Of a stretch of DNA of 64,000 nt, positions 927-63,237 are shown one piece after another. This DNA comes from a virus. The DNA lies in IMG/VR virus record IMGVR_UViG_3300025018_000105; one strand, written 5' to 3'. Both the position numbers and the translations under genes were made by a program. Below the pieces are notes generated by a model. It did not search any database. It had not been told where the DNA came from and saw nothing but the letters and a program-made list of their open reading frames with translations. The first letter of the stretch is position 1. Every line of letters begins with the position of its first letter.

Positions 927-1666
927 CCGACGCAGCCGAAGACGCGACGCTGGGAATGACAAAGGGCCGCAAGGCCGCTCTCAAGGACGCCGCGATGATC
1001 GGGGATTCCGGCTACGACCGGATCGAAGCCGATCACTACAACACCCCTCCTGAAAATCTCGACTGCTTACTCCAGCACGTATCGCTCCACACCAACGTGT
1101 GGGAGCCCGCCGTCGGGATCGGGAACCTCGCAACCCGAATGCACGAGATGGGTTACACCGTCTGGTCCAGCGACATCATCAACTACGGCTATGATGAACG
1201 CTTTACCCAAAGCGACTTCTTTGCCCAGACTAAGATGCCTGACCCGCTGGTTCACTCGATTGTGTCGAACCCGCCCTACGAGACCGTTAAGCTTAACGAT
1301 CCGAACTGGGCGCACCTCAAGCCCCTTGCCGAGAAATATGGCATCACAGGCAACTCGGTCAGTCTAGCCGAACTCTTTTGCCGCCACGCGGTCGAACTGA
1401 CCCGAGCCTGTGAGGGCCAAGTCGCGATGTTCCTGCGAAACGAGTTCGACTGCTCGAAGGGGCGCATGGACCTGTTCTCGAACCGACCATTCTACAAGAA
1501 GATCGTTGTGTCCAAGCGCCCGCGCTGGGTCGAAGGATCGACCGGCTCCCCGCGCCACAATTATTCGTGGTTCGTGTGGGACTGGAGTCTTTCTGAAGGA
1601 GAAGGTCAGATCGCTTACTCGCACCCAGCACTGGCCAAGCTGGCAACTACCGAGGAATACGAATGA
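923..1666 (+). CDS. N6-adenine (amino) DNA methyltransferase, phage type
   Basis: HYNTP, WEPAVGIG (SAM-binding motif I), SSDI, SNPPY (motif IV), WFVWD. Confidence 0.8.
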   Translation: MTDAAEDATLGMTKGRKAALKDAAMIGDSGYDRIEADHYNTPPENLDCLLQHVSLHTNVWEPAVGIGNLATRMHEMGYTVWSSDIINYGYDERFTQSDFFAQTKMPDPLVHSIVSNPPYETVKLNDPNWAHLKPLAEKYGITGNSVSLAELFCRHAVELTRACEGQVAMFLRNEFDCSKGRMDLFSNRPFYKKIVVSKRPRWVEGSTGSPRHNYSWFVWDWSLSEGEGQIAYSHPALAKLATTEEYE

Positions 1667-4818: not shown

Positions 4819-7146
4819 GTGAAGCTCAAGCCCAAAACCCACCGGCGTTTAGTATTTGACGCAGAAACGGACGGTCTCCTCCACCAAGTGACGGTCTGTC
4901 ACTGTGTGGCTGTGCGTGACTATGATACGGGCCAGCGCTGGGTGTTCCGTCGCAATAAGCGCGAGAACACCATCAAAGGGCTGTTCAAGCTCCTAGATGA
5001 TGCAGAAGAAATCTGGGGGCACAACATTGTCGGCTACGACATTCCGATGCTCGAAATCCTCTTTGGATGGACGCCGACAGCCCGCATCCGCGATACTCTC
5101 GTTCTCGCTCGTCTCCTGTTCCCCGACCAGAAGGACAAGGATTTTCGTCTATTTGAAGCGGGCAAGCTCGATGGTGTCAACATCGGCAAGCACACTCTCG
5201 ACTCGTGGGGTCAGCGTCTTGGTCTCTACAAGGGAGATTACAAGGCCACTCGGACCGCCCAAGGCCTAGCCAAGGGAATCGAGAAGGACTCCGAGGAAAT
5301 GCGCTTCTTTGTTTGGGGCACATGGACTCAGGGCCTCGAAGACTACTGCGTAAACGACGTGGACGTGACCACGCTGCTGATCAAGATGATCGACAGCCGC
5401 GAGCAATCTCCCGACGCGATCTACGTCCAGCATCGCCTCGCCGATCTCATGGCGCGTCAGCAAGAGAATGGTTTCCCATTCGACAGGCCGCGAGCTAAGA
5501 TTCTGGCGGGAGAACTGAGCGTCGAGCAAGCGCGTCTTGAGGCTGAACTGGCTGTCGAGTTCCCCGGCCGGTTTATTCCTAAGAAGCGTATGGAAACACC
5601 ACCTGTCGGTCGCGACGTGAACGGAGGCCAGTTTCCCAATTTCTACCTGATCGAAGACACCGAGATCGATCCATCACTCCCAGCGCGGGAAGCGATTGCA
5701 GCCAAGAACGACGCAATGTATACGGTCGTCCCGGAGCGCCGCTGGTATGGTTATCCGGAACAAAAGAACACCAAGAAAGACAGCCCGAAGTGGAAGGACA
5801 CAATGCGTCCTCGCTACGACAAGGGCTCGTGGTTCACGCCCGTCAAATGGCAAGAGTTCAAGGCGACATCACGTCCACAGATCACCGACCGTCTGCAAGA
5901 GATGGGTTGGGAGCCTGACGACGAGGATTACACCGAGAAGGGCAACATCAAAGCGAACGACGTGATCCTGCGTCGGATCGTGCAGGACTTCCCGGTTGCT
6001 GAGAAGCTGGCAGACCTGCTCGCGATCCGCAAGCTTATGGGCCAGTTGCAGGACGGCAATCAAGCGTGGCTCAAGGTCTACGACGAAGAGACCGGGTGTA
6101 TCCACGGCTACGTCAATCCCTGCGGCGCTGTTACCACGCGTGCGACCCACGCCTTTCCGAACTTGGCACAGGTTCCGGCTGTTAGAAAAAAGAAGGCACT
6201 TTTCTCACAGCTTACGCAGATCGCCAATCCGCGCGGCATCATCCGACCCAATGCCATGTTCGAGAATGGGCCGGTGCTGGTGCTCTACAAAGGCCAGCGC
6301 TGTGATGACTGGCATAAGATGCCATGTCACTACAGCGTTGGTGATTGGGAGGTCGAGAAGGACAAGGCCGAGGCAGGTGACGAACGCGAGTTCCAAGTCG
6401 TTATTCTGGGCCTCAAGGGCGGCTGGGGTTATGAGTGTCGCTCTCTGTTTACAGTATGGGAGGACTGGAAGCTTGTCGGGTCCGACTTGGCCGGTATTGA
6501 GCTTCGTTGCCTTGCTCATGAAATGGCCAAGTATGATGGCGGCGAGTATGGGCGTATCCTTCTCGAAGGTGACATCCACTCGGAAAACCAGCGTCGTGCA
6601 GGTCTGGAGACACGCGACCTCGCGAAGACCTTTATCTACGCCTTCCTCTACGGCGCTGGTGACGAAAAGATTGGCAACATTGTTTCGCCGCTTTCTTCTC
6701 CGCCCCAGCAAGCGAAGATTGGTAAAGAACTCAAGGCACGATTCCTCAAAGAGCTTCCGGCTCTAAACCGCGTTATCCGCGATGTTCAGCGCCAAGCCTC
6801 GCGTAAGTTCCTCACCGGGCTGGATGGGCGTCGCCTGTTTGTCCGTTCCAAGCACTCTGCACTGAACACAGACCTCCAAGGTATGGGAGCCACGATCGCT
6901 AATTGGTGGCTGATCCTGATCGAAGACATGCTCTACGACGAGGGACTCACCTACGGCTGGGATGGCGACTTTGTGTTCTGTGCTTGGGTCCACGACGAAG
7001 TTCAGATCGCGTGTCGTGCAGGCCTTGAAGAGACCGTGGAAGGCATCTGCATTCAAGCGGCTGCTGAGGCCGGTAAGCGACTGGGCTTTGCCCTTCCTGT
7101 AGAGGCGTCAGCTTCTAACGGCTATGCATGGCACGAGACACACTGA
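4819..7146 (+). CDS. polA: T7-like family A DNA polymerase with 3'-5' exonuclease
   Basis: VFDAETDG exo I, GHNIVGYD exo II, YCVNDV exo III, GSDLAGIELR motif A, AKTFIYAFLYGAG motif B (Tyr, as in T7), WVHDEVQ motif C. Confidence 0.95.
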   Translation: MKLKPKTHRRLVFDAETDGLLHQVTVCHCVAVRDYDTGQRWVFRRNKRENTIKGLFKLLDDAEEIWGHNIVGYDIPMLEILFGWTPTARIRDTLVLARLLFPDQKDKDFRLFEAGKLDGVNIGKHTLDSWGQRLGLYKGDYKATRTAQGLAKGIEKDSEEMRFFVWGTWTQGLEDYCVNDVDVTTLLIKMIDSREQSPDAIYVQHRLADLMARQQENGFPFDRPRAKILAGELSVEQARLEAELAVEFPGRFIPKKRMETPPVGRDVNGGQFPNFYLIEDTEIDPSLPAREAIAAKNDAMYTVVPERRWYGYPEQKNTKKDSPKWKDTMRPRYDKGSWFTPVKWQEFKATSRPQITDRLQEMGWEPDDEDYTEKGNIKANDVILRRIVQDFPVAEKLADLLAIRKLMGQLQDGNQAWLKVYDEETGCIHGYVNPCGAVTTRATHAFPNLAQVPAVRKKKALFSQLTQIANPRGIIRPNAMFENGPVLVLYKGQRCDDWHKMPCHYSVGDWEVEKDKAEAGDEREFQVVILGLKGGWGYECRSLFTVWEDWKLVGSDLAGIELRCLAHEMAKYDGGEYGRILLEGDIHSENQRRAGLETRDLAKTFIYAFLYGAGDEKIGNIVSPLSSPPQQAKIGKELKARFLKELPALNRVIRDVQRQASRKFLTGLDGRRLFVRSKHSALNTDLQGMGATIANWWLILIEDMLYDEGLTYGWDGDFVFCAWVHDEVQIACRAGLEETVEGICIQAAAEAGKRLGFALPVEASASNGYAWHETH

Positions 7147-56134: not shown

Positions 56135-57076
56135 TTACTCCCCAAACAGATCGAGCACTTCTTCAATGACCGGGTGACGGCAAACGTCATCACGTGTCAA
56201 CTTGACAAGTCCGATACGCTCGTAACGGAGGGCGGTTTCGTAGTCATACGAAGCATCACATGCCACCTCGGCATCGTCATTGTCGTTATTGTCGTCATCT
56301 TGGCCCGTGATGCCTTGCATACCTCCGGTGATGAAACCCGGCAGCGACGGCTGGCGATTGCGCTTGTCTTCAAGACGGTAGATGACATCCCCGAGGCCCA
56401 TCTTACCAATGTGACGGTCATACTGGTTGATGTCGCCCGTGATGATCATGTTACAGCCTTCCCCGATCCGGGTCATGAGCATCTTCATCTGTTCCGGCGT
56501 GGCGTTCTGCATTTCGTCTGCGATCACGACGCAGTTCTTGAAGGTGCGTCCCCGCATGTAAGCCAGCGGTGCGATCTCGATCGTCTCGTTGGTAAGCATC
56601 ATCTGAATCTGGTGCATCTCATAGCACTCGGCAAAGACATCAATGATCGGCCGGGTCCATGGAGCCATCTTCTCGGTTAGGGTGCCCGGCAGGTAGCCTA
56701 GGTCATCACCGGTGGTGACATTGGGACGAGTGATGACGATCTTCGTGATGTCGCCCTTCTGGAAATCGGCGATGGCCTGACGAACCGCCATGTAGGTCTT
56801 ACCAGTTCCGGCTGGTCCTGAAACGATCAGAATATCGTGATGGTGCTGGCGGAGCTTTTTGAGATAGACCTTCTGGTTTCGAGAGTTGGCTTGAAGTTGT
56901 GGAGGACGCTTTTTGGTCATTACCGACATCGGATGATCCCTGTGCGAAGAATAAGGAATGCCTTGATCCTTTGGATATTTGGAAGGGTAGAGAGTTTGCT
57001 TTTTGGCGGGTGTGGTGTTCGCCTTGCGATGGGCTCGCTTTTTGGTGGCACCAGTCCCGCGAGCTTTGCGGGCCAT
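56135..57076 (-). CDS. phoH: PhoH-family ATPase
   Basis: GPAGTGKTY, LGYLPG, IEIAPLAYMRGRTF, ADEMQN, TGD..Q.D, RHPVI. Confidence 0.93.
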   Translation of the reverse strand: MARKARGTGATKKRAHRKANTTPAKKQTLYPSKYPKDQGIPYSSHRDHPMSVMTKKRPPQLQANSRNQKVYLKKLRQHHHDILIVSGPAGTGKTYMAVRQAIADFQKGDITKIVITRPNVTTGDDLGYLPGTLTEKMAPWTRPIIDVFAECYEMHQIQMMLTNETIEIAPLAYMRGRTFKNCVVIADEMQNATPEQMKMLMTRIGEGCNMIITGDINQYDRHIGKMGLGDVIYRLEDKRNRQPSLPGFITGGMQGITGQDDDNNDNDDAEVACDASYDYETALRYERIGLVKLTRDDVCRHPVIEEVLDLFGE

Positions 57077-57802: not shown

Positions 57803-57890
57803 TTCGGTGTCTCCTTGCTTCCGATGACTCAGTAATACCGATTCGGGGTGATTCGGTCAATACCTAAAATCACTTTATTTCGCTTTTTGT

Positions 57891-58040
57891 TTACTCGCTA
57901 TTTACCATAGCTTGTTCCCTTTGGAAGTCAGCGGCTAGGCGTGCAGCCCTGCGCGCCCTCGCCTCGGCGATCGGGCGATCGGGCCAGCGTCCGAGTCGCT
58001 GGCCCTGCACATCGCATTCCCATTGATTGCGACTAGCCAT
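57891..58040 (-). CDS. 49-aa Arg-rich early peptide (not in ORF track)
   Basis: TGATG coupling to the upstream peptide. Confidence 0.5.
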   Translation of the reverse strand: MASRNQWECDVQGQRLGRWPDRPIAEARARRAARLAADFQREQAMVNSE

Positions 58041-58195
58041 CAGGGTAGCTTGTCTAGCGTGTTCTGCACAGCAGCCACAGCAGCGAATAACGTAGCACTA
58101 GCAGTATAGGCAACACATACAGCAGCCACAGCAGCAGCAGCGCGCACAGCAAAGCCGGTGAAGAGAAGTCCTGCAATTCGTTCGAAGCTGTTCAT
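58040..58195 (-). CDS. 51-aa Ala-rich hydrophobic early peptide (not in ORF track)
   Basis: ATG after the repeat RBS; MNSFERIAGLLFTGFAVRAAAAVAAVCVAYTASATLFAAVAAVQNTLDKLP. Confidence 0.65.
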   Translation of the reverse strand: MNSFERIAGLLFTGFAVRAAAAVAAVCVAYTASATLFAAVAAVQNTLDKLP

Positions 58196-58332
58196 CGGTC
58201 TGTCTCCTTAATTCCGATGATTCGTTCATGTCAGAACGAAAGTGATTCGTCAAGCCACTTGTGCGGGGCTCAATTCTCAGGGGCATTCCGGGCCCTGCTA
58301 TGCCAGCAGAGCCCAGAGAAGCCCTTAGGGCG

Positions 58333-58605
58333 CTATTCCAGCGCTTCCACAGGGTAAGCCCGGATCATGGGGCACAAGCGCCCCTCGGCGTTCTCAGGGA
58401 AAAATTCGGTTCGCACAAGGTCGGAAAGCTTGTCAGCATCCGTCCAGCTAGGCGCACTAAAACGAATCGTTTTCGGCTGATTCGACAAGCCTAGGTGATA
58501 GGCGAGTCGGGGATTTTTCAGGCCGTGTTTTTTCGCAGCCGCCAGCAGCGCGGATTCGTCCTGCGAATCACTGATTCCTGTTCCTGTCAATTCAAAGCGT
58601 TTCAT
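58333..58605 (-). CDS. early hypothetical protein
   Basis: Half-copy repeat RBS. Confidence 0.7.
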   Translation of the reverse strand: MKRFELTGTGISDSQDESALLAAAKKHGLKNPRLAYHLGLSNQPKTIRFSAPSWTDADKLSDLVRTEFFPENAEGRLCPMIRAYPVEALE

Positions 58606-58796
58606 CGGTCTGTCTCCTTAATTCCGATGATTCTCTCCTGCCCGAGTTTAAGAGATTCATCAATCCCTAAAACATGGTTAATTTCTAGGCCGTTTTTGTT
58701 AACCATACTTGGTAGGCTCGCGTTAACCTTAACACCGTCTTTCCAAGTATAGTTAACGAAACGGCAGATTTTGTTAACCATAATTTTGCGTAGGAC

Positions 58797-58826
58797 AAAA
58801 AAAAGGGAGGCTTTCGCCTCCCTTTG
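58797..58826 (-). terminator. intrinsic terminator GGGAGGC-GAAA-GCCTCCC-U7
   Basis: Same stem also at ~59730 and ~60307. Confidence 0.85.
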
Positions 58827-58827
58827 C

Positions 58828-59046
58828 TTATTGCGCCCAGTCAGGCGGCTCCTGTCCTGCGATGTAATCGGCATCCCAATCCGCTTGGCAGTTGAGTAGT
58901 TTTCCCGCCTGATAGTCCTGATCCTCAGCGTATCCTAACGGATCGGCCAGAAAAGCAAGTTCATCGTGGTAGAGGTTAACGTGACTATCAAAGAACCCCT
59001 TAAAGGGATAAACGTTGACGATGGTGACGGTTTCGACAGTGGCCAT
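58828..59046 (-). CDS. early acidic hypothetical protein
   Basis: Repeat RBS. Confidence 0.7.
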   Translation of the reverse strand: MATVETVTIVNVYPFKGFFDSHVNLYHDELAFLADPLGYAEDQDYQAGKLLNCQADWDADYIAGQEPPDWAQ

Positions 59047-59108
59047 TTCGTGTCTCCTTGGTTTCGATGATTCGTTTTTGAACGAGTCCAAGTGATTCGT
59101 CAAGCCAT

Positions 59109-59306
59109 TTATTCAAGTTCGAGTCCATCGGCGAGCATTCCGTCAATGATGTCGTCAGCGTAGCGATGTTCGATGTTGAGGATTCGCCCGTTCCACATAT
59201 AGCTAGGCGCATCAACATTTTCGTTGATCCAGTCCTGAGCCGATTCGGTCACAGCGATCACTTGAACGATAGAGCCTGAGTCGATGATTTCAATATCGTG
59301 AGCCAT
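59109..59306 (-). CDS. early hypothetical protein
   Basis: TAATG coupling, GGAAGG RBS. Confidence 0.7.
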   Translation of the reverse strand: MAHDIEIIDSGSIVQVIAVTESAQDWINENVDAPSYMWNGRILNIEHRYADDIIDGMLADGLELE

Positions 59307-59509
59307 TAGCAAGCCTTCCATTTGTTAATTGCAGAGCGGGGGGCGATTTCGCGCCCATGGTGGGTATAGTGTGGCCCGACGTAAGGCGTAATGATCGGCC
59401 TGCGTGCCTGCGTGCCTGCGACCTTGCGAGCGTAGGCGCGAGCGACCAGCAGCGCGCGAGCGCCGAGGAAAACCACGAAAAGGGCGATCAGGGCAATTGC
59501 TTCAATCAT
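59306..59509 (-). CDS. early membrane-anchored peptide
   Basis: Repeat RBS; N-terminal TM segment. Confidence 0.65.
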   Translation of the reverse strand: MIEAIALIALFVVFLGARALLVARAYARKVAGTQARRPIITPYVGPHYTHHGREIAPRSAINKWKAC

Positions 59510-59510
59510 C

Positions 59511-60324
59511 GAATGTCTCCTTGGTTTCGATGATTCGTTTTTGAACGAGTCGAAGTGATTCGTCAACCCCTATAATTCAAAAACTATGGTTAACGCGGGG
59601 AAGTTAATTTGTTAACCATATTTGTGAACCAAGTTTCGTTACGCCGCGTTAACCTTAACACGGCCCTACCAGACATGGTTAACGAATCGGCCGATTTTGT
59701 TAACCATGTTTTCGCAGAGGGCAAAAAATGGGAGGCTTTCGCCTCCCCATTTTTAGGCGTATTCTGCGAGTCGTTGCCCTGTCAGATTCAGGAAAAATGC
59801 AGGATTGAATGGTCCCCAATCCGTCGCCTTAGGGCCATACAGCGCGCCCCCGAGCGAATCGACATATGCAACGCAATCTTGCTCCAGCACCTCACTAAGG
59901 ATTAGCAGCGCGTCACCGTCAAGCCCTGCGGACAATTCGGCGACAAGAGTCGGCTCGCTGTCCGATTCGTGGACAGTGTAACGTTGCACGCGGCCACCGA
60001 GTCGGCGAATCTGCGTGAGAGCACGCGGCACAGAAATAAGGCCGCCTTGATTCGAGTGAAGGCCGATATTGATAAGATCACGCATTGAATGTCTCCGTGG
60101 TTTCGATGATTCGTTTTTGAAGGAGTCCAAGTGATTCGTCAACCCCTATAATTCAAAAACTATGGTTAACGCGGGGAAGTTAATTTGTTAACCATATTTG
60201 TGAACCAAGTTTCGTTACGCCGCGTTAACCTTAACACGGCCCTACCAGACATGGTTAACGAATCGGCCGATTTTGTTAACCATGTTTTCGCAGAGGGCAA
60301 AAAAATGGGAGGCTTTCGCCTCCC
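59511..60324. repeat. ~240-bp near-perfect direct repeat (59511-59747 and 60087-60324), partial third copy at 60545-60628
   Basis: Promoter unit, TTAAC-rich block and terminator duplicated. Confidence 0.9.
59753..60085 (-). CDS. putative SAM lyase (T3 gp0.3-like)
   Basis: SEPTLV and EVLEQDCVAY resemble T3 SAMase EEKTVRV and NEWEQDCVLVY; early location. Confidence 0.5.
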   Translation of the reverse strand: MRDLINIGLHSNQGGLISVPRALTQIRRLGGRVQRYTVHESDSEPTLVAELSAGLDGDALLILSEVLEQDCVAYVDSLGGALYGPKATDWGPFNPAFFLNLTGQRLAEYA

Positions 60325-60330
60325 TTGGAT

Positions 60331-60543
60331 TTAGCGAAGCTTGGCTTTCGCTTGGACTCCGCGATTGCTTTCCAGCCTGTCCGCGTCGGAAAGCGGCTTA
60401 TTTATTGGCGCTTCCAGTTGGAGGCGGCGACCCGGCCAAGCCTTGCGAGCGCGCTCTTTGGCCTGTTTCAGGCTTACCGCGCTGACATGGCCCATGAAAG
60501 ACCGATAGTTCCATACGGGGTAAACAGGCATTTGGTTTTGCAT
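60331..60543 (-). CDS. early 70-aa basic protein (paralogue of 57590-57802)
   Basis: Repeat RBS; sequence identity visible by eye. Confidence 0.75.
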   Translation of the reverse strand: MQNQMPVYPVWNYRSFMGHVSAVSLKQAKERARKAWPGRRLQLEAPINKPLSDADRLESNRGVQAKAKLR

Positions 60544-60674
60544 TGAATGTCTCCTCGGTTTCGATGATTCGTTTTTGAAGGAGTCCAAGTGATTCGTCAA
60601 CCCCTATAATTCAAAAACTATGGTTAACAGCGGATAGCACAAAATTAACCATATTTATGAACCCGGCGTTAACC

Positions 60675-60707
60675 TTAACATGGGGTTAAGAGTTAATTCT
60701 CCGTTAA
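60675..60707. promoter_or_regulatory. two full CtrA boxes (TTAA-N7-TTAA)
   Basis: TTAAcatggggTTAA 60675-60689 and TTAAttctccgTTAA 60693-60707. Confidence 0.65.
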
Positions 60708-61091
60708 CCATATTTGTTGTTTGTTTGTTGTGATTCGGTCTGCTATCAAGAGCAATGGCCACAGGAAGGCGATTCGTCCCATTTTGGGACGGGTCTGGCC
60801 GTGCCATGGTTAACACGTCGGTAACCATTCGGTTGCGATGGTTAACGGATCGGTAACCATGCCCGTTAACCACGGGTAAAATGGGCCTGATCCAAAACCC
60901 CTCCACTCCATAGCAAAATGACCTCGCTCCATAGGAATCGAAAATGAGTCCGCTCCATAGGAATCGAAAACGCGCCGGGTCCATAGCTGGCCCGACGCGT
61001 TTCCGGAGATTCACCCTTAGAAAGGGGCTGCGAACAAAAAGAGCAGCAGGGCGATGAATATCTTCACGATGCCTTCAACCAACTCCATAGG

Positions 61092-61358
61092 CTAGGCCTC
61101 GCTTTCGTAGTCGGGGAGTCCAGCCTCGGCGCGCTCGGCGTCGTAGTGGCGAAGCACCATTGCGAGAAAGTCCGGCGCGTGATTCATCCCACTCTGATCT
61201 GCCAGATGCAATAGGTCCGTTATCATCGCGATACATGCCGTAAGCAGGTCGTCATCGCTTTCTTTATGGGCCTGATACTCGGCAAGGCCCCATTCGGCAA
61301 ACTGGGCGCGGTCGGCCAGTTCGACGCGCTTGTCGCCCTGCGTTACGGCGTTACTCAT
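61092..61358 (-). CDS. early hypothetical protein
   Basis: ITDLLHLAD helical family pattern; GAGGAGGG RBS. Confidence 0.7.
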   Translation of the reverse strand: MSNAVTQGDKRVELADRAQFAEWGLAEYQAHKESDDDLLTACIAMITDLLHLADQSGMNHAPDFLAMVLRHYDAERAEAGLPDYESEA

Positions 61359-61641
61359 GCGGCGACCCCTCTTCGAGGTCTTCGAGAAGCCAGACCTGCG
61401 GGAGGGTAACGCTTTTCTGGATCGTCATCGCGGGCGACAGGCTGAGCGCTGGCATGTCTTCGGAATACGACTCACCAGTCACAACAAGCCCTTCGGCGAC
61501 TTCTTGGCTGCGGCTGGAAAACTCGATCCCAGTCTGTTCGTCTTGCAGCTTGGCGATCTGCACTTTTGCTTCGTCTTCGCTGTCGGCCACCACGTAGACC
61601 GTGGCTGCGATAAGGATTTCTCCTAAGTAAAGTTTCGTCAT
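61351..61641 (-). CDS. early acidic hypothetical protein
   Basis: GGAG RBS after the degenerate repeat. Confidence 0.7.
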   Translation of the reverse strand: MTKLYLGEILIAATVYVVADSEDEAKVQIAKLQDEQTGIEFSSRSQEVAEGLVVTGESYSEDMPALSLSPAMTIQKSVTLPQVWLLEDLEEGSPHE

Positions 61642-61843
61642 TGATGTTTCTCCGTTTCCGCTTGATTGTGGTGATGCCTTTCTGCCTAAGTTCGAATGAT
61701 TCGTCAAGGCCCTATTTCCTCAGCGTTAGGGTCCCCTTAACTGTGAGCGTAGGTTCCCGGCCCTTGTTCTGAGGCTCAGGGTCCCGTTAACCTTAACGCG
61801 GTGGTAACCTCCAAAGAAAAGGCCGGATCGCTCCGGCCTCTTC

Positions 61844-62044
61844 TCATATTTTGAACCAGTCCTGCTCTTCCATGTCGATGACCAGCGTCGCCTCGCCGTG
61901 TGTTGGGTTGTGCCACGTTACCCAAGCTTCCCATTGCGTTAACTCATTGTCCGTGGGCGTGATAGCGTGAACGTCCAACGGGTCGCAGTTGTCGGCGATG
62001 AATTGTAGCACTTCTTCCTGCGATTTTGTTAGCTTGATCTTCAT
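61844..62044 (-). CDS. early hypothetical protein
   Basis: TGATG coupling, AAGGAG RBS. Confidence 0.65.
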   Translation of the reverse strand: MKIKLTKSQEEVLQFIADNCDPLDVHAITPTDNELTQWEAWVTWHNPTHGEATLVIDMEEQDWFKI

Positions 62045-62583
62045 CAACTCTCTCCTTTGTCGTTCAGGTCCACGATGATCGTCGCGCCTTCAAATTGACG
62101 GGCGCTCTCAAGGGCCACATCGAAGCTGTCGAAGTCTTCCGAATAGCCGCGCTCTCCCGGTGGGCCATCAGAAACGCCCCATTCCGTTTTGCCTAGCGAT
62201 TCGGGCGGGAAAACGCCGTCGTCGATCTGGTGCTGTTGGATCGGACTGCCCTCGATCAGATACAGTGTTTTGCTGTCTGCGAGCGGCCCTTTTCTGGTCC
62301 GTGCGGCGGCGAGGGCCAGCGCCTCGTTGACTTGCTTGGAGTCAGCAACACCTTCGCGAAGGGCGTCGCCCAAGGCAGTGCTGGCCTCTTCTTCAATCGG
62401 ATCGATGATCCCTGCCTTGACGCCCAGCAGATATTGCGAGCGCGCCACGAGCCGCAACGCGGCAGTGTGAATAGGGCCGGTCTCGGGGTCGCTTGTTTCG
62501 GTGTCCAGCGTGTTGGTTTCAGCCAGAATCTTGAAGGCATCAATCGCGATGCAAGCGAGCCTACTTAGGTTGTCAGTATGCAT
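62044..62583 (-). CDS. early hypothetical protein
   Basis: GGAGGG RBS; typical codon usage. Confidence 0.7.
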   Translation of the reverse strand: MHTDNLSRLACIAIDAFKILAETNTLDTETSDPETGPIHTAALRLVARSQYLLGVKAGIIDPIEEEASTALGDALREGVADSKQVNEALALAAARTRKGPLADSKTLYLIEGSPIQQHQIDDGVFPPESLGKTEWGVSDGPPGERGYSEDFDSFDVALESARQFEGATIIVDLNDKGES

Positions 62584-62714
62584 GCGTAAGCCCTCCGATG
62601 CTTGGGGTTGCGAGTGTAAGAGCCCTTGCCCTTACGGTTGCGATGCGCCGCACAGCGCGTGATGCGGCCCGAGCGAAGGGCGGCGGCGATAGGGTTGTGT
62701 TTCGCGTTGCTCAT
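62565..62714 (-). CDS. ArfA-like (alternative ribosome-rescue factor A-like) 49-aa peptide
   Basis: NPIAAAL...RNRKGKGSYTRNPKH resembles ArfA NAIEALL...KNKKGKGSYMRKGKH. Confidence 0.7.
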   Translation of the reverse strand: MSNAKHNPIAAALRSGRITRCAAHRNRKGKGSYTRNPKHRRAYACILTT

Positions 62715-62880
62715 CGGTTGTCTCCTTGGTTTCGATGATTCGTTTATGCCATGGTCCAAGTGATTCGTCAATAGCAATTTTCAGAAATAAACACTCAGCC
62801 CTGTTCTGAGGCTTAGGGTTCTATTAACCTTAACGCGGTCATAAGGTTCAGGAAAAGGCGGGGATTGCTCCCCGCCTCCC

Positions 62881-63102
62881 TCAAAACTCGGCGTAGAAGC
62901 CCTCTTCTTCGAGGATTTCCTTGGCCATATCCACGATCTGGCGGTCGGTCCCATCCCAATCTTCGTGGAGGCTGGAATAGTCCTGATCGGGTAGGTCGAG
63001 CACGCCGAGGCCACAGATGCGCGTCAAGGCGTAGTTAATCTTCTTGCCGAAGGACAGGAAGGTTGGGCGGTCGGGGCAGGTGAAGTATTCGATAACGTCC
63101 AT
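62881..63102 (-). CDS. early acidic hypothetical protein
   Basis: Repeat RBS. Confidence 0.7.
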   Translation of the reverse strand: MDVIEYFTCPDRPTFLSFGKKINYALTRICGLGVLDLPDQDYSSLHEDWDGTDRQIVDMAKEILEEEGFYAEF

Positions 63103-63237
63103 CGGTTGTCTCCTTGTTTCCGATGATTCGTTTGTGCCATGGTCAAAGTGATTCGTCAAGCACTATTTTCATCAAGTTTCTATTTCTAAAAGTTAGAGTC
63201 CTGTTAACCTTAACACGGTGGTAAGATTCAAAAACAG

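Follow-up and report, generated by a model that had tools for sequence, protein, structure and literature searches.

We suggest that a 49-codon open reading frame carried by a tailed phage encodes a true homologue of the ribosome-rescue factor ArfA, and that its product acts as a constitutive, RF2-dependent rescue factor brought to its hosts by mobile elements; we put the probability of this reading, which we draw from sequence comparisons, at about 0.6. Ribosome binding, RF2 dependence, the timing of expression and the benefit to the phage are the parts of it that we infer. The window, by which we mean the whole 64,000-nt stretch analysed here, is IMG/VR virus record IMGVR_UViG_3300025018_000105, and all coordinates refer to it unless another genome is named. 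According to the ORF list and its translation, the coding sequence occupies 62565-62714 on the minus strand, running from an ATG at 62714-62712 to a TAA stop at 62567-62565, and specifies 49 amino acids. A first-pass annotation of this DNA had claimed that the peptide carries the ArfA signature and is about as long as the active, truncated form of ArfA. The signature is present exactly, as N7-x-I9-x-A11-x-L13 followed by K28-G-K-G-S-Y33-x-R35-x-x-K38-H39, and the claim about length also stands: residue 40 of the window protein pairs with residue 46 of E. coli ArfA, so that residue 49 corresponds approximately to residue 55, and the active E. coli form is 54-55 aa long (PMC8012679).

The window derives from a tailed phage, with genes for a portal, a tape measure, tail proteins, a DNA polymerase, a Dda-like helicase, a ribonucleotide reductase and an NAD-dependent ligase; searches for tRNAs, tmRNA and Rfam families found none within it. 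Its portal protein shares 88% identity with the portal of Erythrobacter phage vB_EliS-L02, 72% with that of Erythrobacter phage XM05, 64% with that of Sphingobium phage Lacusarx and 56% with that of Citromicrobium phage RXM. Since vB_EliS-L02 has been described as a CbK-like siphovirus (PMC9127768), these comparisons identify the window as a CbK-like siphophage of the marine Erythrobacter type, close to vB_EliS-L02, and by the same relatives its host is probably a member of the Erythrobacteraceae.

The ArfA-like identity proposed in the first pass was borne out by a Pfam match above the family cut-off, by matches to solved ArfA chains and by a profile-profile alignment. The window protein scores 27.5 bits against Pfam ArfA (PF03889; E 2.2e-6), a margin of just 2 bits over the gathering cut-off of 25.5, with much of the score coming from the basic motif. 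The match nevertheless remains significant after allowing for the roughly 2,000 small ORFs of the window, and is thus more than chance. Ten relatives, including those of vB_EliS-L02, Cr30 and Mwe-JY26, also exceed the PF03889 cut-off, and the window protein is matched over residues 4-40 by six different E. coli ArfA sequences of solved structure (E 0.008-0.03). Searches of NCBIfam gave no match to the protein, and in PHROGs it had only a weak match, to a family of unknown function. A single-sequence search of 1.84 billion representatives returned only two true relatives; a 49-aa query is underpowered for such a search, which is why a profile search was needed, and this yielded 79 short relatives, nearly all with PF03889. 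When 30 relatives from phages and mobile elements were aligned with hhalign against nine canonical ArfAs from Pasteurellaceae, the two profiles matched with a probability of 97.8% (E 7e-13) over 49 columns, with a one-residue insertion in the window protein. This alignment pairs A11 with A18, I18 with F25, A23 with V29 (in the beta-strand, residues 27-30) and Y43 with a conserved aromatic residue; at position 23 the window protein has A where most relatives have V. Comparison of the window ORF with three phage homologues gave pN/pS ratios of 0.19-0.66, which indicates that the reading frame is under purifying selection at the protein level.

In E. coli ArfA, F25 binds a pocket of RF2 formed by V198 and F217 (for the residue roles see PMC8012679 and PMC6299226), and truncation of the protein to 40 aa abolishes activity (PMC8012679). 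The element of the window protein that would sit in the mRNA channel, at its C-terminus, is complete (K28-Y33, R35, K38 and H39) and reaches a point that corresponds to about residue 55 of the E. coli protein. These correspondences are consistent with the following mechanism. The basic C-terminal half (KGKGSY-x-R-x-x-KH and the aromatic residue after it) would enter the mRNA entry channel, vacant in a ribosome that has stalled at the 3’ end of a broken message. Host RF2 would be recruited and activated by the N-terminal helix and strand (NPIAAAL...I18...). RF2 would then hydrolyse the peptidyl-tRNA, freeing the ribosome and releasing the peptide untagged. The phage mini-ArfA would be made constitutively during infection, and a host class without ArfA, relying on tmRNA and ArfB, would gain a fast and tag-free rescue route. 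The benefit could be that ribosomes stay free for use while mRNAs of host or phage are being cut or are decaying, or that RNA-cutting defences are countered.

The same residues could be read in another way, with the peptide as a non-productive plug or competitor that fills the mRNA channel or the A site, with or without RF2, and causes no release; it would block tmRNA-SmpB or ArfB or sequester RF2, either for host takeover or to stop the tagging and degradation of phage products. The basic tail is indeed the best-conserved part of the protein and the source of most of its Pfam score, and in ArfA the A18T substitution abolishes the activation of RF2, uncoupling binding and RF2 recruitment from hydrolysis (PMC8012679). 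In the wider clade K, R or G often stands opposite A18 in the alignment, so that the packing of the helix against RF2 may differ there. The window protein has nothing equivalent to the first seven or so residues of E. coli ArfA, which become ordered in the active complex, and the strong promoter and Shine-Dalgarno sequence of the gene suggest a high dosage. However, within its own close clade the N-terminal stretch NPIAAALR-G, A11 included, is as invariant as KGKGSY, and a hydrophobic residue stands at the F25 equivalent; a mere plug would need neither, and trapped ribosomes would hurt the translation of the phage as well. Because the part expected to contact RF2 is conserved, we favour true rescue and consider a plug unlikely.

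Copies of the gene are found in several other phages. In vB_EliS-L02 it lies at 5841-5969 on the minus strand, encoding 43 aa with 76% identity to the window protein, and is unannotated; in XM05 it is gene 102, annotated as "hypothetical"; and in Citromicrobium phage vB_CbaS-RXM it is gp10, annotated as ‘alternative ribosome-rescue factor A’ and located three genes from ArdA. The 232-aa acidic neighbour upstream of the gene in the window was considered as a possible ArdA-like protein and ruled out on comparison. Diverged copies are present in the T4-like Caulobacter phage Cr30 (1456-1608, plus strand, unannotated), in Microcystis phage Mwe-JY26 and in Roseobacter phage CRP-212 (about 1489-1614, plus strand, unannotated). 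The CRP-212 copy lies in a different frame over the 3’ end of gp38, a sign that gp38 may be over-extended as annotated. No ArfA-like gene was found in Lacusarx, Ruegeria phage RpAliso or Caulobacter phage Ccr34. The tblastn searches of phages and plasmids were insensitive for a family of this kind, since borderline matches at E ~1 proved on inspection to be real members, and the counts of carrier phages are therefore lower bounds. In a pattern scan of IMG/VR, more than 584 stretches matched, of which four were kept after confirmation against the window protein.

Other genes of these phages also touch on translation. XM05 and vB_EliS-L02 contain weak matches to PTH2-type peptidyl-tRNA hydrolases (23.3 and 22.4 bits, respectively, with a cut-off of 23), and the description of vB_EliS-L02 lists an RNA ligase, a nucleotidyltransferase of the CCA-adding type and 29 tRNAs. 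Together with ArfA, the PTH2 match, the ligase, the nucleotidyltransferase and the tRNAs suggest a kit for the maintenance of translation.

Within Alphaproteobacteria, the ArfA family appears to be carried by mobile elements. A survey found arfA in none of 2,376 Alphaproteobacteria and none of 162 cyanobacteria, with arfB common (PMC11633108), and according to reviews and a survey that covered 15,259 genomes, ArfA is restricted to gammaproteobacteria, part of the betaproteobacteria and a few species of Bacillus. In our own sample of alphaproteobacterial genomes, the sole match to PF03889 and to the clade profile came from the genome at the centre of the sample, a MAG whose copy lies on a contig of 3.7 kb, apparently of phage origin; the 400 other genomes gave none. 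Two bacterial copies from Sphingomonadales are both borne on plasmids, one in Erythrobacter aureus (408 kb) and one in Sphingosinicella (347 kb), and both lie among small hypothetical genes. It is the absence from the 400 genomes, the zero of the published survey and the plasmid location, taken together, that point to carriage by mobile elements in this host class. On the E. aureus plasmid (NZ_CP031358.1, 143.9-152.0 kb), arfA is part of a long same-strand run of small hypothetical genes, a layout reminiscent of the early region of a phage or the leading region of a plasmid; the replicon is classed as ‘non-mobilizable’.

An RF2-dependent factor in such hosts would need to work with an RF2 that has not co-evolved with a chromosomal ArfA, which counts against the RF2-dependent reading, as ArfA/RF2 pairs are species-specific (PMC8012679). 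All 24 alphaproteobacterial RF2 proteins sampled have V198 and F217, and 21 of the 24 have W319, but this pocket is probably general to RF2 and so lends weak support to host compatibility. One may therefore ask whether the window protein is a rescue factor with a different partner, either RF1 as well as RF2, as for ArfT, or another factor from host or phage. The lack of a native ArfA-RF2 partnership in the hosts (PMC11633108) would fit such an arrangement, as would the difference between the N-terminal region of the window protein, NPIAAALRSG, and the canonical NAIEALLHDPLF, and ArfT offers the precedent of a small ArfA-like factor able to use either release factor (PMC6299226). The profile alignment, on the other hand, retains equivalents of A18, F25 and the beta-strand residue V29, and the RF2 pocket that these would meet is intact in Alphaproteobacteria. 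Moreover, no gene with a release-factor or Pth domain was found in five ArfA-carrying phage genomes, so that a host factor must be used. We judge a different partner to be quite unlikely, and return to the RF2-dependent rescue factor as the reading to be preferred.

In its mode of synthesis the window gene departs from arfA as it is known. E. coli arfA has 72 codons, a hairpin truncates its mRNA, and the final 17-18 residues are missing from the active product (PMC8012679); in the Pasteurellaceae sampled, canonical arfA ORFs have 61-84 codons. Because canonical arfA is made from a non-stop message, which arises through an internal hairpin, an RNase III site or a terminator, it is repressed by tmRNA. 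The window gene instead has an in-frame TAA where the active form of ArfA would end. An internal hairpin or terminator of the ArfA type was sought and not found: the minus strand showed no terminator-like site within the ORF or downstream of it, no excess of RNA structure was found in the transcript region (MFE z 0.28), and relatives do not keep an 8-bp stem that spans the KGKGSY codons. With an ordinary stop and neither of these elements, the gene cannot be gated by tmRNA through non-stop mRNA. The tail after KGKGSY is 11-12 residues long in 69 of 98 database relatives and usually ends in x-[YFW]-A; the idea that this ending is a degron was dropped, as its aromatic residue has a conserved aromatic counterpart in canonical ArfA.

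The ORF is translationally coupled to the gene that follows it, which encodes 179 aa (62044-62583, minus strand in the ORF list; no match in Pfam or PHROG). The two overlap by 19 nt, and codons 40-41 of the ArfA-like ORF (CGG AGG, 62592-62597, minus strand, read from the sequence) double as the Shine-Dalgarno sequence of the downstream gene. In close relatives, an ATGA stop/start overlap joins the gene to unrelated downstream genes; the window reads ATGC instead (62581-62583), so that the protein gains five residues (CILTT) and the overlap grows to 19 nt. The CGG AGG codons are common to the window, vB_EliS-L02, an IMG/VR contig and the MAG contig, though their downstream genes differ, and in XM05 the ArfA gene is followed by intergenic motifs with no overlapping gene. 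Because the downstream genes vary between phages, promoter and ArfA gene together behave like a leader module that is conserved. That the ORF is just a leader controlling the coupled gene, its peptide functionless, is very improbable: the overlap and the internal Shine-Dalgarno sequence, conserved at the nucleotide level, would suit it, but the protein is under selection while the downstream genes differ, XM05 lacks the overlapping gene altogether, and the homology to ArfA is strong.

The gene is further set apart by the signals upstream of it. A GC-rich hairpin with a T-run at 62852-62877 (minus strand), recognised from a repeat family and by reading the sequence, ends the preceding gene and resembles a terminator called at 57568-57541, making the ArfA-like unit a separate transcription unit. 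It is followed by a sigma-70-like promoter (62743-62771, minus strand, read from the sequence) with a -35 of TTGACG (62771-62766), a 17-nt spacer and a -10-like CATAAA (62748-62743), and by the Shine-Dalgarno sequence AAGGAGA (62721-62727, minus strand, likewise read from the sequence), 6 nt 5’ of the ATG. GANTC sites overlap the -35 and lie just 3’ of the -10. A generic promoter scan did not call this promoter because of its poor -10. It belongs to one of ten aligned cassettes, across which the Shine-Dalgarno sequence is kept. With a normal stop, a strong promoter/Shine-Dalgarno cassette of its own and a coupled next gene, constitutive synthesis would be expected.

These ten near-identical promoter/5’UTR cassettes lie within a block of small genes at 57808-63159 (minus strand), delimited by repeat families, cassette alignment and motif search; each stands 5’ of a small gene, mostly with a terminator after it. 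Their layout is TTGAC-GAATCAC, about 19 nt, an A-rich -10, CGAATCATCG, AAGGAGACA and ATG, and each holds two or three GANTC (CcrM-type) sites. The cassette core TTGACGAATCA occurs in eight exact copies, all on the minus strand and only in 58.2-63.2 kb; with one mismatch allowed there are nine matches against 1.66 expected. The same cassette precedes the ArfA gene of vB_EliS-L02, and the XM05 promoter is similar. A second motif, the 12-mer GTTAACCTTAAC, has 11 matches in the window against 0.03 expected. Seven of them lie in 58.7-63.2 kb, all on the plus strand in one orientation (58722, 59648, 60224, 60668, 61786, 62823 and 63203), and the copies in the block sit between terminators and promoters; the one at 62823-62834, with one mismatch, falls between the terminator and the promoter of the ArfA-like gene. 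Since the motif also occurs near the ArfA gene in vB_EliS-L02, XM05 and RXM, it may be the binding site of a regulator. From the cassette and the gene neighbours, early expression, as the first-pass annotation had it, is plausible, and gp30 of pelagiphage HTVC027P, which is described as having an ArfA domain, is reported to be highly expressed both early and late (PMC12753301).

The block and its surroundings have other features. A 227-nt stretch comprising a cassette and its upstream sequence is duplicated with 97% identity (59502-59728 and 60078-60304, 576 nt apart), which suggests a recent duplication or recombination between cassettes. Direct repeats of 26-27 nt form two pairs, 60802/60834 and 60915/60941 (2.2-2.4 tandem copies), in the region 60800-60990, where no gene is convincing. 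A PhoH-like ATPase is encoded at 56135-57076 (minus strand), in the interval that separates the block from the structural genes.

ArfA has been described as always made from a stop-less message and kept off by tmRNA; the phage and plasmid clade would represent its working core freed of that control. This mini-ArfA circulates on alphaproteobacterial phages and plasmids and on at least one cyanophage, and the published genomes of vB_EliS-L02, Cr30 and CRP-212 carry no annotation for it. If the protein is active, phages supply a ribosome-rescue pathway of their own, which bears on translation during host shut-off or under RNA-cutting defences, and mini-ArfA would be a natural test case for the way in which an ArfA accommodates an RF2 with no earlier ArfA partner. 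The peptide is small and easily synthesised, and is thus directly testable. A bolder proposal, which we regard as rather doubtful, is that the stop-terminated clade is not a housekeeping back-up and that phages and large plasmids deliver it early, to bacteria that lack ArfA, as an anti-defence factor, overriding tmRNA-centred rescue and neutralising defences that cut mRNA or stall ribosomes, such as toxin-antitoxin RNases and abortive-infection nucleases.

Comparison with known systems places the window protein closest to ArfA. ArfT of Francisella and BrfA of Bacillus are also small and basic, detecting a vacant mRNA channel and bringing in a class I release factor (PMC8012679, PMC6299226), and BrfA shares the KH motif; beyond the basic tail, neither has detectable homology to the window protein. 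ArfT uses RF1 or RF2 and has no residue equivalent to F25, and BrfA, like ArfA, is made from non-stop mRNA. Phage-borne ArfA has been published as brief, domain-based mentions, for RXM gp10 (PMC8953757) and HTVC027P gp30 (PMC12753301), both of them PF03889 proteins in phages of Alphaproteobacteria, as here. RXM gp10 sits in the equivalent small-gene block of a related phage and is 31% identical to the window protein in alignment, although the annotated RXM ORF is longer. In the literature searched we found no description of the stop-terminated, coupled design, of confinement to mobile elements in a host class lacking arfA, or of the unannotated copies. ArfA itself (YhdL; PF03889; PDB 5MGP, 5MDV, 5U4I, 5H5U and 7OJ0) is RF2-dependent and encoded on beta- and gammaproteobacterial chromosomes; the window gene, unlike it, belongs to a phage of a host class without arfA on its chromosomes, has 49 rather than 61-84 residues, ends in an ordinary stop and is coupled to a variable downstream gene. 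Nevertheless, the two are homologous over about 45 residues, sharing the N-x-I-x-A-x-L helix, a hydrophobic residue where ArfA has F25 and the KGKGSY-x-R-x-x-KH tail with an aromatic residue after it, and in length the window protein equals the ordered or active part of E. coli ArfA.
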